The notes below the pieces were generated by a model, which did no database searches, was not told where the DNA came from, and saw only the letters and a list, made by a program, of their open reading frames with translations. DNA of 64,000 bases from Bdellovibrionales bacterium (lineage in GTDB: Bacteria; Bdellovibrionota; Bdellovibrionia; Bdellovibrionales; JAUICD01): contig OZ241865.1 in NCBI GenBank assembly GCA_965203275.1, positions 1,696,001-1,760,000 of the forward strand, read 5' to 3'. The position numbers and the translations under genes were made by a program. Position 1 is the stretch's first letter, and each line of letters opens with the position of its first letter. Below, piece after piece: positions 1,435 to 59,202 of the stretch.

Positions 1435-1744
1435 CTTGTTTCCTTAACATGGTGTCAGAAGCAAGGAGATCCGCTCTACTCAAAATGAGCAGATTTTTGA
1501 GGCATTGCTCTTTTTAGACAGCGATAGCTGTCAGAGCAAACATCAGAAGGAAATCTTTTTCCTTAACATGTGGTCAAGAGACGAGAGGATCCTCCCCTAC
1601 TAAAAGTAAACGGACTTTTGAGGTAGCCAGCCTTTGATCGACGGCGGTAGCCGTCGGGCTGGCTACCCAAAAGTGACCAGAGGTCAGTTTACTTTTAGTG
1701 AAAAACAGAGGTGTGGCTCATTTTGAGTGAAATGTTAAGGAAAC
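1435..1744 (+). mobile_element. Structured repeat element: outer copy with complete inner copy (1555-1702) nested inside
   Basis: CTTGTTTCCTTAACAT start; outer arms CTACTCAAAATGAGC / GCTCATTTTGAGTG are separated by a full second unit. Confidence 0.85.
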
Positions 1745-1796
1745 AGAGTTTCATTTGTAGACCCGCCTGCTCCTTAAAAACATTTTAGAAGCATAT

Positions 1797-1959
1797 CTTG
1801 TTTCCTTAACATGCTGTAAAGGAATAAAAGGATCCTCTCTACTTAAAATGAACAAGCTTTTGAGGTAGCCAGCCTTTGATCGACGGCGTGAGCCGTCGGG
1901 CTGGCTACCCAAAAGTGGCCAGAGGCCAGTTCATTTTGAGTGAAATGTTAAGGAAAAAG
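1797..1959 (+). mobile_element. Structured repeat element, complete copy with terminal inverted repeats
   Basis: CTTGTTTCCTTAACAT ... ATGTTAAGGAAAAAG; internal nested stems; CGACGGC-GTGA-GCCGTCG hairpin. Confidence 0.9.
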
Positions 1960-1979
1960 TTCAGTTTTAGGGCCTGTTG

Positions 1980-2047
1980 CCGGATCCCAGATCCCGGATC
2001 CCGGATCCCAGATCCCGGATGCCGGATCCCGGATAAATACCATGTTA
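1980..2047 (+). repeat. GATCCC(G/A) heptamer microsatellite module ending GATAAATACCATGTTA
   Basis: Direct reading of tandem GATCCCG/GATCCCA units. Confidence 0.85.
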
Positions 2048-2062
2048 CAGTCAGTGATGATG

Positions 2063-55265: not shown

Positions 55266-55294
55266 TGACATTGGTCTTATATTATGCTATTGTA
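55266..55294 (+). promoter_or_regulatory. Putative sigma70 promoter for the AAA gene
   Basis: TTGACA-17 bp-TATTGT with upstream TG. Confidence 0.4.
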
Positions 55295-55459
55295 TGTAGA
55301 TAGTAGGTCAGCAAATTATTCAGAACTGGAGTGGACCCTCAACTAGTAGGTAGGGTAGCCATAACTAAAAGATCTTCATCAATATAAATAAGCTGACAGA
55401 TACTCAATTTTTATAGATATGTAAAAAAGAGAAAGTCTAAAAACTTCGATAAGTGAATT

Positions 55460-57667
55460 ATGATTACAAAAATCACAATGGATAATATTGCAAGCTATAA
55501 AAAACCTACATTTTTTGAAACTGATAAGAAGATCAATCTGATCTATGGACTCAATGGGACAGGTAAAAGCATTTTTTCAGAATATCTATATAATCAATCA
55601 AATTCAAATGATCAACTAAATTCAGAATATTCAGATTGCTCTATTGAAGGACTCAATGACAAAGACATTCTTGTTTACAATCAAAAATTTATTCAAGATC
55701 ATTTTTATCAAAAAGAGAGCTTAAAAGGTATCTTCACTATATCAAAAGACAATAAAGAAGCCTTAGAAAAAATTAATAAAGCAGAACAAGAGAAAAGTAA
55801 GCTTGAAAAAGAAAAAGAAGATAAAAATAAGGAAAAAGATCGTTTTAATGAAGATTTAAAAGAGAAAAAAGAAGATGCGGAAAACAAAGTATGGGAAATT
55901 AAAAAAAAATATACTGGTGGTGATCGTGTGTTAGAATATTGTTTTGATAGTCTAAAAGGTAAAAAAGATAGATTATTTGATCATTTATCCCAGATAGAAA
56001 AACCTGCACAAAAACCAAAGAAAGAAACCAATCAACTCAAGAGCGAAGTTTCAGCTATAAAAGGGGATAAAGCACAAAAGTATAATCCATTGCCTTCTAT
56101 TAACTCCGAATTTTTTCAAGAAGTAGAATTAGATCCCATTTTTAAAAAAGTCATTATAGGGAATGAAAATAGCACAGTCTCAGATTTGATTAAAAGCCTC
56201 AATAATTCTGATTGGGTCCAAAAAGGATTGGTTTATTTACCAGAAAAAATAAATGCACAAGAGCCTTGCCCTTTTTGTCAGCAACCAACTATTACAAATG
56301 AGTTAAAACAGTCCATTCAAGATTACTTTGATAAAAGTTATAGTGATAAACTTGATAAAGTTAAAAAACTACTTTCAAAATATGAAGATAGTGTTAATAA
56401 ACATATTCCTAAAAAAAATATTTTTCAAAATTATCCATTTATTGAAAATAAAAAACATGAATTTGAAAATTTATACAATACCTTATCAGCAGTATTAAAC
56501 AATAATAAAGAAAAAATAAAAAACAAAATACAAACACCAAGTCAACAATCTCTTATGAAAAACTCAAAAAAAGCTATCGATGATTTTAATAACTTTATTC
56601 AAACTATCAATGAAAAAATCACAGCTCATAACCACAAGATGGACAATAAAGAGAAAACTCTTGGAGAAATCAAAAATCAGTTTTGGGATATTATGCGTTG
56701 GGATTATGATCAAACTTTGTCTTTTTATGAAAGTGAGAAGCATAAAATTGGAGAAAAAATAAACGACATTCAAGAAAAAATAAAAAATATTCAAAATAAA
56801 ATATCTATTCAAGAAAAAACTATAAAAGAGCATCAAGGTCAAACTAGCAATATTCAAGAAGCTATTGATCATATTAATCATCAGCTTAAAGATCTAGGTA
56901 TAAGTAATTTTGAGATAAAAAAACACGATAAAAATTTTTATAAAATCATCAGAGAAGGACAATCTAGTGATACATTTCAAACTCTTAGTGAGGGTGAGAA
57001 AATGATAATAAGTTTTCTTTATTTCTGTGAGCTTTGTAAAGGGAAAAAGACAGCATCAAGTCCTTTAAAGAAAAAAATTATAGTCATTGATGATCCTATT
57101 TCCAGCCTATCTCATATTTATATTTTTAATGTAGGTATGCTTATTAAGGAAACCTTTTTAGAATCTAATAATTATGAGCAGATCATTCTCTTAACACATA
57201 GTCTTTATTTTTTCCATGAATTATCTAAGTTATCTAAGAGGTTATCTAAAAAACAAAACAATCCAAAACTTTTTAGAATGATCAAGAATTCTGAAGGTAG
57301 TCAAATTTTAAAGATGGAAGATAAAGAAATCCAAAATGATTATCAATCTTACTGGAGTATTGTAAAAGACCGTCAGCAACCACCAGCCTTAATGGCAAAT
57401 TGCATGCGTCAAATTCTTGAATATTTTTTTGGTTTTATTGAAAAAGAATCCTTAAATGAGGTTTTTAAAAAAGACATATTTAAAGAACTAAAATACCAAG
57501 CGTTTCATCGCTACATGAATCGAGAGTCTCATTTTGACAGTCAAAATATATCTGATACAAAAGAGCTTGATTATGAAAATTTCCGAGAAGCATTTCAGTT
57601 AGTTTTTAAAGAGAGTGGATATAAAAAGCACTATGATCGCATAATGAAACCTGAGTTTGACAGTTGA
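55460..57667 (+). CDS. RloC-like AAA/SMC-type ATPase with zinc hook and C-terminal HEPN-like domain (putative anticodon nuclease)
   Basis: GLNGTGKS, CPFC hook, coiled coils, LSEGEK, IDDPISSL, LLTH and RYMNRESH. Confidence 0.75.
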   Translation: MITKITMDNIASYKKPTFFETDKKINLIYGLNGTGKSIFSEYLYNQSNSNDQLNSEYSDCSIEGLNDKDILVYNQKFIQDHFYQKESLKGIFTISKDNKEALEKINKAEQEKSKLEKEKEDKNKEKDRFNEDLKEKKEDAENKVWEIKKKYTGGDRVLEYCFDSLKGKKDRLFDHLSQIEKPAQKPKKETNQLKSEVSAIKGDKAQKYNPLPSINSEFFQEVELDPIFKKVIIGNENSTVSDLIKSLNNSDWVQKGLVYLPEKINAQEPCPFCQQPTITNELKQSIQDYFDKSYSDKLDKVKKLLSKYEDSVNKHIPKKNIFQNYPFIENKKHEFENLYNTLSAVLNNNKEKIKNKIQTPSQQSLMKNSKKAIDDFNNFIQTINEKITAHNHKMDNKEKTLGEIKNQFWDIMRWDYDQTLSFYESEKHKIGEKINDIQEKIKNIQNKISIQEKTIKEHQGQTSNIQEAIDHINHQLKDLGISNFEIKKHDKNFYKIIREGQSSDTFQTLSEGEKMIISFLYFCELCKGKKTASSPLKKKIIVIDDPISSLSHIYIFNVGMLIKETFLESNNYEQIILLTHSLYFFHELSKLSKRLSKKQNNPKLFRMIKNSEGSQILKMEDKEIQNDYQSYWSIVKDRQQPPALMANCMRQILEYFFGFIEKESLNEVFKKDIFKELKYQAFHRYMNRESHFDSQNISDTKELDYENFREAFQLVFKESGYKKHYDRIMKPEFDS

Positions 57668-58017
57668 TTTGCGAATGTGGATATCTTTTTTTGAGAATGT
57701 TTTATTTATAGGTGTTAGAGAGATTTGTAAGTTTTAATTTTTAAATTTTGGTAGAATTCCTAGTGAAACATTTTTTTTTAATTTTATCAATAAAGTCTTG
57801 ATATAGAAAGCTATACATTATTGAGTAAAAATGATAATGAAAATATGAAAATCCTAAAAATAAGGGGGAAAGATGAAGTTTCAGATAAATAAATTAATGA
57901 TTTCCCCTAAATTAAAAAGCTTACAGTAAAAAAAAGCTCACATCCTAGTGGCATAAAACCTTGTTACGCTTATAACCTATTGAAATCACACAATTTTATT
58001 TTTGCAGGCTGTCAAAC

Positions 58018-58944
58018 TCAAGTTTTACTTTTTAGCTTTAAAATATGATCTTGAGATAAACCTGTCACCTGAGAGATTAAAGCAATATTCATATTCTCTT
58101 TTAACATATTGTGTGCAACTAATTCCATACCCTTTTCCATACCTTCTTGTCGACCCTCAGCGATACCTTCTTGTCGACCCTCGGCGATACCTTCTTGCCG
58201 ACCTTTAGCTAAACCTTCTAATAAGCCTCTTTTAACCATTGGTATATATGCACCCATCTTACCTCCTTCTACTTTGACTAATTTACTATCCTTATCTGAA
58301 GCTAATTTCAAACATCTATTGAAAAAATCCAAATCTATTTTTGGATTTCTACGATATAAATGATATTGAACTGCTGATAATATTATATCTTGATTATTCA
58401 CTCCATGCAACCCTTTAAACAAATGAACCAACTCACTTTCAAGAACACGCTCATCCGAAGAAGTTAGCAACTTTTTATCCTTAAACAAATATAATGCTAT
58501 GCGAGAATGTAAACAACCCCACTGACTCTGCAAATGAGGGTCATGTACATCATAAATCCGCAATCTATAATTTAACATATCTTGAGATAAACTGCTCAAA
58601 GGACCTTGTATTCCCTGTTTTTGTTCCTGTAACTGCAATTCTAACCACTCTTTAGGAAGCAAATCTTGTAAAGATAATGGACCCTTAACTTGACGATGAC
58701 CATGAGAAAATAAAATAGCCAGCAACGGAGGGAATACCACTTGACCTTTCACATTGTAACGCTTGATCACCTCACACATATAACCTAATACTTGAATTAA
58801 TACTTGGGGCTTATAACTTGACTTATGCTCAAATAAAATTAACAGAGGAATACGTACATGAGGATAGGCCTTAAAAGGGATGCTATAAAGCAAATCTGCC
58901 GTTAAGCCCTTTGTAAAACTATCTTTGACTAAATTTTGTTTCAC
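58018..58944 (-). pseudogene. Rpn/YhgA-like PD-(D/E)XK nuclease, 5'-truncated by repeat element
   Basis: ADLLY, LFEHKS, EGRQEG repeats, ISQVTGLS tail; apparent GTG start lies within the element end. Confidence 0.75.
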
Positions 58945-59202
58945 TAAAAGTGGTCTAGCCTCTGGCTACTTTTGGGCAATGACCGCAAAGGCTTTCGCCT
59001 TTGACAGAATGGTCATTGCCTCAAAAGCCTGACCACTTTTAGTAGGAAGGATCCCTTCGTCCCTTAACTCCATGTTAAGGAAAAAGCTCTTTCTTACACC
59101 TTTTGGCTCACGCCGTCGATCAAAGGCTGGCTACCTCAAAAGTCCGTTTACTTTTAGTAAGGAGGATCCCTTCTTTTTTTAATACCATGTTAGGGAAACA
59201 AG
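58940..59202 (-). mobile_element. Structured repeat elements (complete 58940-59086 plus partial)
   Basis: Consensus stems, GAAA loop, side hairpin TAGCC-AGA-GGCTA. Confidence 0.85.

Follow-up and report, generated by a model that had tools for sequence, protein, structure and literature searches.

The 64,000-nt window analysed here (contig OZ241865.1, positions 1,696,001 to 1,760,000, of the Bdellovibrionales bacterium assembly GCA_965203275.1) carries many copies of a hairpin repeat that share one layout more closely than they share a sequence, which raises the question of what upholds the fold and what copies it. On balance, the evidence points to mobile or recombining DNA more than to an RNA gene. 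The repeat is probably a lineage-restricted, selfish, non-autonomous intergenic family, similar to REPINs and miniature inverted-repeat transposable elements (MITEs), that is handled as a folded single strand by an enzyme that our searches did not identify.

Abundance of the repeat in the window and in the genome

The window belongs to a genome assembled as a single contig of 2,567,810 bp with 35% G+C (hereafter G000). In the window, the 11-mer TTCCTTAACAT occurs 34 times with at most one mismatch, compared with 2.97 expected, and 0 of 100 shuffles reach 34; the whole genome holds 989 exact occurrences. An nhmmer profile of 145 nt (TTTCCTTAACAT ... AGTGAA), made from eight copies in the window, returns 33 rows for the window, of which seven are opposite-strand shadows of palindromic copies and the rest are 15 full and 11 partial copies. 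The original prediction, made from the letters of the window, had counted about 15 complete and at least 10 partial copies, and its starts agree with ours within a few bases. Genome-wide, the profile yields 1302 non-overlapping matches (733 full and 569 partial copies) that occupy 149,830 bases, or 5.8% of the genome. Both strands are used (377 copies on the plus strand and 356 on the minus strand). The core of the repeat is ~145 nt, or ~165 nt including an A-rich leader.

Pairwise identity among the G000 copies averages 73%, while the median nearest-neighbour identity is 96.6%; furthermore, for 126 of 658 strictly full copies another copy matches at 99.5% identity or more, indicating that the family is old and diverse and includes recent duplicates. 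Unique cores are found in 583 of the 658. Short-read contigs from four public runs agree exactly with the unique flanks, end within repeats, and reach 100–185x the single-copy k-mer depth where copies lie. The copy number is thus truly high and no assembly artefact; the order of copies within clusters rests on the single-contig assembly.

The repeat adopts a three-way fold in which every helix covaries

The unit is composed of one 105-nt three-way fold and a 40-nt 5′ tail (GC 0.35–0.45). The fold was found as originally described, with a 14-bp outer stem, a 16-bp middle stem carrying a bulged A, a 6–7-nt internal loop, a 6–7-bp tip hairpin, and a 5-bp side hairpin of the layout NNNCC-AGA-GGNNN. 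Folding z-scores are −9.7 (RNA, plus strand), −10.1 (RNA, minus strand) and −12.3 (DNA).

When the 15 window copies are aligned, standard pairs fill 98.7% of 628 cells, compared with a shuffled mean of 84.2%, and 25 of the 42 pairs have changed on both sides; 0 of 500 shuffles match the observed pairing, double-change or covariation values. As a control, sliding the pairing partners by 1–3 columns leaves 31–47% paired. The result is repeated in two related genomes, a sister species of the same genus (G001) and a member of another genus of the same family (G004). Specifically, 16 distinct copies from G001 and G004 give 98.4% of cells paired and 27 of 42 pairs double-changed, and 43 distinct copies from G001 alone give 98.2% and 29 of 42, each with 0 of 500 shuffles, both alignments being fitted to the model structure so that their counts lean towards it. 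Covariation in every stem, as claimed from the window, is thus borne out, and conservation lies at the level of structure in three genomes.

Consistent with the alignments, most of the variable pairs across G000 show two or three Watson-Crick types with 93–100% standard pairs, and the stem pairs quoted in the original prediction all rank among the commonest genome-wide variants. For the tip stem, 627 of 658 copies carry one of eight perfectly complementary haplotypes. Among the commonest complementary haplotypes, the outer stem has about nine, the middle stem about 14, the tip eight and the side hairpin five to six, and they occur in 202 combinations, indicating that whole stems reassort as modules. 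The tip variants of G001 include ones absent among the common variants of G000.

Asymmetries that point to the folding of one particular strand

Superimposed on the covarying stems are segments conserved by sequence and not by pairing, namely an unpaired 5′ 12-mer, a GGATCC-like core, and the stem base TACT/AGTG. The side loop reads CAGAG in 632 of 658 G000 copies. At the tip, the closing G and A of the loop are conserved (GAAA 202, GAGA 48, GGTA 42, GACA 40, GATA 34, GTGA 20), with GNA triloops in about 230 copies and GNYA loops in 116. GCGAAAGC and GCGAAGC are exceptionally stable DNA mini-hairpins.

These G..A tip loops read so on the element strand only. In addition, G-T mismatches outnumber A-C mismatches (262 versus 136), G-T being the more frequent at 22 pairs and A-C at six. 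Both asymmetries support the folding of one particular strand on its own. Together with a structure kept in three genomes, they support the proposal that the repeat is a folded single-stranded substrate under selection.

A small open reading frame (ORF) beginning at the ATG in TTAACATG was considered and rejected: 186 of 636 copies have no ATG, and 168 meet a stop within five codons. No reading frame conserved through the element was found.

Copies are intergenic, stack in one orientation, and join at exposed loops

A total of 1181 of the 1302 G000 copies lie outside a crude ORF set, and only eight of the 733 full copies have their midpoint inside such an ORF. Their orientation follows transcription weakly: in co-directional spacers, 204 copies match the direction of transcription and 159 oppose it, and copies are equally common between divergent and convergent genes. 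Copies upstream of genes share the direction of the gene in 222 cases versus 99. The median distance to genes is 201 nt on the 3′ side versus 455 nt on the 5′ side, and most often the 5′ end comes after other repeat modules, above all CCGGGAT-type heptamer arrays. Of these arrays, 105 occur in G000, and 48 are followed within 60 nt by the 5′ end of a copy. Their units are 7–8 nt long (CCGGGAT or CTGGGAT), each with a GATC that is often part of GGATCC, and a typical array is bounded upstream by the 5′ 12-mer of the element and downstream by GGCAACCCGGCA.., the leader, and a full copy. In the window, arrays lie at 1968–2047, 25048–25355, 45373–45405 and 55100–55135.

The copies of the window, with their immediate companions, are as follows (full and partial copies were located by nhmmer, with further evidence in brackets).

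1439–1534, plus strand: 5′ part (profile 1–99) of a host copy split by the copy at 1558 (sequence)
1558–1702, plus strand: full copy, nested within the partial copy starting at 1439 (profile 1–144, E 2e-45; sequence read)
To about 1742, plus strand: 3′ remainder of the host copy starting at 1439, ending in the inverted 11-mer
1801–1944, plus strand: full copy, then the inverted 11-mer ATGTTAAGGAA at 1945–1955 (sequence, folding)
10768–10914, minus strand: full copy (E 6e-32)
10938–11034, minus strand: partial copy (profile 1–99)
11044–11107, minus strand: partial copy (profile 40–103)
11132–11806, plus strand: Rpn-family PD-(D/E)XK ORF (PF12784, TIGR01784) with copies on its flanks; candidate enzyme only
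11817–11959, plus strand: full copy, 11 nt past the stop of the Rpn-family ORF (ORF annotation)
20638–20778, plus strand: full copy within a 370-bp intergenic region; the orthologous G001 region is ~45 bp and empty (synteny)
24737–24881, minus strand: full copy, nested in the partial copy 24898–25002
24898–25002, minus strand: 5′ part (profile 1–106) of the host copy, whose 3′ remainder lies at ~24699–24736
25048–25362, minus strand: companion module, the 5′ 12-mer of the element followed by a ~300-nt CCGGGAT/CTGGGAT heptamer array ending ..AGTGAA
25464–25607, minus strand: full copy
28627–28770, minus strand: full copy, opening a same-strand stack
28788–28899, minus strand: partial copy (profile 1–112)
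28917–28985, minus strand: partial copy (profile 44–112)
44911–45057, minus strand: full copy of a divergent subfamily (E 6e-24; sequence read)
45106–45250, plus strand: full copy, its 3′ end adjoining a 5′-truncated remnant of a four-helix-bundle (IVP) gene (sequence)
45428–45572, plus strand: full copy, preceded by a heptamer run and leader (sequence)
50513–50624, plus strand: 5′ part (profile 1–112) of a host copy split by the copy at 50632
50632–50775, plus strand: full copy; the host resumes directly after it, at the side loop (..AGAGGCTGG..)
52870–53014, minus strand: full copy, divergent
53027–53136, minus strand: partial copy (profile 1–110)
53197–53275, plus strand: partial copy (profile 1–78)
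53298–53441, plus strand: full copy
55171–55226, minus strand: fragment (profile 30–78)
58018–58944, minus strand: Rpn-family ORF (PF04754, TIGR01784) abutting copies; candidate enzyme only
58940–59083, minus strand: full copy, touching the start of the Rpn-family ORF (ORF annotation)
59105–59198, minus strand: partial copy (profile 1–94)

The nesting and stacking seen in the window are general in G000. Among 578 clusters, 324 contain two to ten matches, and the other 254 consist of one copy each and are spread along the entire chromosome; 371 pairs of neighbouring copies are less than 20 nt apart. Neighbours within 30 nt have the same orientation in 478 of 500 cases and opposite orientations in 22, and all 32 clear nested cases share one orientation. 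By k-mer mapping, precise to a few bases, a piece of another copy comes after about two thirds of the full copies and before about half of them. The commonest 3′ junction, reading ..AGTGA, AC or CC, and AGAGG.. in succession, is present in 96 of 641 full copies and represents re-entry into the side loop of the host copy; other classes of junction fall at the tip loop, at the internal loop, and directly past the 5′ 12-mer.

A fixed-offset target duplication was not detected: the best counts of 4–6-mers shared between the flanks are 20–29 of 641 copies, versus 6–19 in shuffled pairings, at scattered offsets. An inverted 11-mer 150–189 nt downstream accompanies only 53 of 504 forward 11-mers in G000, and the distances between inverted 11-mers show no length peak above 300 nt. 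ATGTTA.. follows 58 of 641 full copies, which we take as the 5′ end of a copy facing the other way. Fixed-period tandem arrays also occur, with a 235-nt spacing found eight times in G001 and spacings of 270 and 395 nt in G000.

A separate tandem array lies at 43929–44921 of the window, where a 231-nt unit is present in four copies that are 99% identical. In each unit, the final bases of a repeat copy appear in reverse and lead into a hairpin-like module (..CGTATCTCTGAAAGAGGT.CGTACGGGTAGAC) that recurs after many copies elsewhere.

Within the genomes sampled, the repeat is confined to one lineage and differs in position between sister species

In a ~9.5-kb block that is syntenic between G000 and G001, the 370-bp spacer that holds a copy and remnants in G000 corresponds to ~45 bp of empty spacer in G001, and G001 has no copy anywhere in the block. 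The exact ends of the element could not be read from this comparison, the intergenic DNA being too diverged to align.

A covariance model (R1) finds the repeat in G001 and in G004 (12 matches), where the motifs are retained in a second genus. R1 gives no match in two other members of the family (G002 and G003), in 36 other genomes of the order, or in 150 other sampled genomes of the phylum. Viral contigs and phage and plasmid records contain no match to the repeat. Pattern scans of a genome collection gave, among the matches listed, 22 stretches, of which 21 belong to the congener and one, in an archaeal metagenome-assembled genome, is unmatched by R1 and is taken as chance; the single metagenome match lies inside an ORF, is likewise unmatched by R1 and is read in the same way, and a looser scan returned scattered single chance matches. 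Rfam has no match in the whole window at the gathering threshold, in agreement with the view that this is not a named family, and at a permissive threshold only models of microRNA precursors appear, far below their cut-offs. A literature search of partial coverage found no description of this repeat family.

Comparison with known repeat families

Structured interspersed repeats are known as REP, REPIN, bcr1 and Correia elements, and integron attC sites likewise conserve structure over sequence and are used as one folded strand. Unlike attC sites, the copies described here stack on each other and do not close gene cassettes, and G000 has only two tyrosine recombinase genes. The palindrome-associated elements derived from IS200/IS605 resemble the repeat in being strand-specific and hairpin-dependent and in requiring neither terminal inverted repeats nor a target-site duplication; however, G000 is without TnpA(Y1) or TnpB, and the repeat shows no replichore-linked orientation bias, GC skew being weak. 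A MITE of the DDE type would differ in having terminal inverted repeats at both ends, a target-site duplication of fixed length, and a parent insertion sequence with the same ends, none of which is seen here. Rickettsia-type palindromic elements (RPEs) lie in frame within genes, whereas eight of 733 full copies are mid-ORF and no frame is conserved.

In behaviour, the repeat resembles REPINs and the REP-BIMEs that RAYT mobilises in Pseudomonas and E. coli. According to excerpts of the published accounts, REPINs are extragenic and present in hundreds of copies, with a hairpin unit in single-stranded DNA (ssDNA) or RNA, conserved ends, a spacer whose pairing is kept by compensatory changes, insertion into or beside each other, no target-site duplication, and mosaic clusters (PMC3116915, PMC3184786). 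The repeat shares with the REP and REPIN class an extragenic, clustered distribution and a hairpin upheld by compensatory change. Unlike a REPIN, which is a doublet of 20–40-nt GC-rich REPs, it is a 145-nt AT-rich three-way structure, it has no RAYT in G000, and its density, at 5.8% of the genome, is far higher. Its stem base, TACT...AGTG on the element strand, also differs from the GTAG or CGTC head of REPs given in an excerpt of PMC3733652. The bcr1 repeat of the Bacillus cereus group is similar in size (~155 bp), in being interspersed, and in having a multi-branched fold upheld by compensatory changes; compared by description only, and from excerpts, bcr1 differs in its flanking 5-bp direct repeats and known transcription (PMC3184786), with no target-site duplication present here. 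On the traits compared, the repeat fails the tests that define REP/RAYT systems, MITEs of the DDE type, derivatives of IS200/IS605 and RPEs, and by the arrangement of its copies it also departs from attC sites. It behaves like REPINs and other selfish structured repeats.

A model for the repeat and its alternatives

In the model that we favour, the working form would be one folded strand, most likely ssDNA, with a Y-shaped three-way structure. Protein contact or cleavage would probably take place at the invariant unpaired or stem-base motifs, which are the 5′ TTTCCTTAACAT, the stem base TACT/AGTGAA and the side loop CC-AGA-GG, and the middles of the stems would be free to change as long as pairing is kept. 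We infer movement as ssDNA, with loops as entry sites and an enzyme acting in trans. New copies would preferentially enter or adjoin old copies in the same orientation, with junctions placed in exposed loops, chiefly the CCAGAGG side loop, and without target duplication; homologous exchange between copies may then reshuffle whole stem modules.

Several results weigh against this model. No mobilising enzyme for the repeat was identified in G000: a Y1 HUH or RAYT domain (PF01797) has 0 matches among six candidates, reverse transcriptase (RVT_1) has 0 matches, the sole TnpB hit is one weak zinc-ribbon match within a 1365-aa ORF, there are only two tyrosine recombinases, and the only multi-copy DDE family, an IS256-like element with nine ORFs, was rejected as a parent because its ends are unrelated to the repeat. 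No replichore bias in orientation was seen in G000, which argues against a lagging-strand ssDNA transposon, for which a bias would be expected, although the weak GC skew makes this soft evidence. The junctions are never clean, 6–30 host columns being lost at each, so that deletion or template switching between tandem copies could give the same pictures. Finally, no direct excision or insertion event was seen among the short-read contigs, which end within repeats, so that none bridges a copy.

The structural evidence could also be explained by a repeated structured RNA, transcribed with its neighbours or alone, with the Y-shaped RNA acting in processing, stability or regulation and the copy number owed to a co-opted mobile element. 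Covariation with few mismatches would fit this explanation, as would the preference for G-U-compatible mismatches on the element strand, the 222-to-99 excess of copies sharing the direction of the gene downstream, and the tip loops, which are nearly all GNRA in G001 (GTAA, GCGA, GTGA, GCAA) and commonly GAAA, GAGA or GTGA in G000. Bacillus bcr1 repeats (~155 bp), in an excerpted account, set a precedent for transcription with structure kept by compensatory changes (PMC3184786). We nevertheless consider an RNA gene unlikely, since co-directional spacers show only 204 copies in the same direction versus 159 opposed, with divergent spacers occupied as often as convergent ones. The ~230 GNA triloops and 116 GNYA loops would fit DNA mini-hairpins better than RNA GNRA loops, no T-run follows the stem as in an intrinsic terminator, the window has no Rfam match, and 569 truncated copies and self-nesting are hard to square with 1,300 functional RNA genes.

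It is likewise improbable that no dedicated machinery is involved, and that palindromic DNA spreads by tandem duplication, slippage and ectopic recombination while intrastrand repair of hairpins or cruciforms, not selection, keeps the arms complementary. Arm-to-arm copying would erase the bulged A, the 6–7-nt internal loop, the one-strand G..A loops, the CC-AGA-GG loop and the unpaired 5′ 12-mer; moreover, 254 of 578 clusters are single copies across the whole chromosome, and a second genus keeps the same motifs. What such passive spread would account for are the fixed-period tandem arrays (235 nt in G001; 270 and 395 nt in G000), the untidy junctions with lost host bases, the reassortment of stem modules as contiguous blocks between conserved sequence, and the failure to find a transposase linked to the repeat. 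A further alternative, which we judge very unlikely, is a REPIN-type family whose RAYT (Y1 HUH transposase) was lost from G000, leaving fossils reshuffled by recombination only. The REPIN-like hairpin form, compensatory changes, nesting and lack of target duplication (excerpts of PMC3116915) point that way, and G001 carries one Y1_Tnp gene; however, that gene has no R1 match within 1.5 kb, whereas REPs flank RAYTs in the excerpted account (PMC3116915). The presence of Y1 and of the repeat is uncoupled over the five genomes of the family, G004 having copies without Y1 and G002 three Y1 genes without copies, while G000 has 0 Y1 matches among six candidates, and the 126 of 658 copies with a partner at least 99.5% identical suggest recent copying.

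The repeat unites features seldom combined: a three-way fold with every helix covarying strongly, reassortment of stem modules, single-strand asymmetry, self-targeting at a conserved loop, occupancy of 5.8% of a small genome, and a host genome in which no member of a known repeat-moving enzyme family was found. If the repeat is mobile, its mover would be something new. The ~1,300 diverse copies, with those of two more genomes, provide a rich natural data set on the upkeep of a fold under drift and recombination. In practical terms, the repeat explains the fragmentation of short-read assemblies in this lineage, and it will mislead ORF callers, which take frames through copies.

Gene families that accompany the repeat

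The original prediction had stated that no clear cognate enzyme lies in the window. None is clear, and no HUH, reverse-transcriptase or TnpB gene was found in G000, but the prediction overlooked two Rpn-family ORFs directly beside copies (11132–11806 and 58018–58944). An all-versus-all comparison of G000 ORFs revealed one large enzyme-like family, comprising 74 Rpn-type PD-(D/E)XK 'putative transposases' (PF04754, PF12784, TIGR01784). A copy lies within 300 nt of 65 of the 74 Rpn ORFs, compared with 597 of 1917 ORFs overall, and the nearest copy lies at a median of 123 nt on the upstream side and 108 nt on the downstream side of an Rpn ORF, compared with about 3,600 nt for all ORFs. Furthermore, PF12784 is present in all three repeat-carrying genomes and in neither of the two family members without the repeat.

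According to an excerpt of PMC5350276, the E. coli nuclease RpnA promotes recombination independent of RecA, for which primer-template switching has been proposed, a route that would suit the junctions seen in the repeat. On this basis, the repeat could be the long-missing DNA substrate of the Rpn/PD-(D/E)XK 'putative transposase' family, although we rate this as distinctly improbable. After a nick by an Rpn-type nuclease in an exposed loop of the folded strand, the 3′ end would serve as primer on a second copy, with template switching; the outcome would be same-orientation stacks, loop junctions, no target duplication, and reshuffled modules. If true, this would be bacterial repeat copying without an HUH, DDE or reverse-transcriptase enzyme.

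Rpn could not be accepted as an established mobiliser. The arrangement and orientation of gene and copy are not fixed, G003 has 16 PF04754 genes and no copies, G004 has Rpn and PDDEXK_2 loci without a copy within 1.5 kb, PF12784 occurs in four of 38 genomes without the repeat, and in another genome of the order (G022), 12 aligned PDDEXK_2 units (of 14 matches) share a ~1.05-kb unit without such a hairpin. The link between Rpn and the repeat is weak, and Rpn is a candidate only.

Many of the 74 Rpn ORFs of G000 are truncated, and they carry variable C-terminal short repeats of the EGxx type. The units of G022 (loci L090–L101) are near-identical, each with a PF12784 PD-(D/E)XK gene and a sharp 5′ boundary that begins with a small hairpin (CGGAT.AAATGTCCG); each looks like an actively copied unit of a poorly understood 'transposase' family.

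A second companion is a four-helix-bundle gene of ~100–120 aa (23S rRNA IVS protein, PF05635/TIGR02436), found at 14 loci in G000, where the cassette order is heptamers, gene, heptamers, leader, element. A copy lies at most 150 nt downstream of 10 of 11 of its ORFs. The window holds a 5′-truncated remnant at ~45258–45355 (plus strand), fused to the 3′ end of the copy at 45106–45250. Gene counts are 14 in G000, 19 in G001, 19 in G004, and 0 in both G002 and G003. As a cognate enzyme the gene was rejected: 13 other genomes of the order have it without the repeat, and one cassette locus in G004 has no copy. The relation is an association, and the gene is not the cognate enzyme. Also rejected as a partner was a 65-member ORF family of low-complexity coiled-coil repeats that lies away from copies. 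Its ORFs in G000 show KENQ.. heptad-like repeats and often form tandem arrays of up to nine genes; judging by its sequence, window ORF 30210–30713 (minus strand) appears to belong to it.

Other features of the window

Abundant ankyrin proteins suggest a host-associated lifestyle. Ankyrin-repeat ORFs lie at 8577–10757, 29043–29423, 49853–50251, 50868–51782, 53465–54661 and 59733–60056, and the largest ORF family in G000, with 101 members, includes ankyrin proteins. At 36272–37645, the type I restriction specificity gene hsdS contains two halves (36279–36578 and 36963–37262) whose DNA is 96% identical; it belongs to a type I restriction-modification operon that adjoins a HinP1I-like restriction-modification pair.

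Four long ORFs have no Pfam match. One, at 4174–8166 (minus strand), encodes a cysteine-rich secreted protein of 1330 aa, and those at 2063–3958 and 22670–24475 (both minus strand) encode paralogous proteins of 600–630 aa with an HExxH-like motif. The product of the fourth, at 17226–20426 (plus strand), is 1066 aa long and includes long proline-rich tandem repeats with periods of 60 and 24 nt; from its position upstream of an ExbB/ExbD/ExbD operon, it may be TonB-like.

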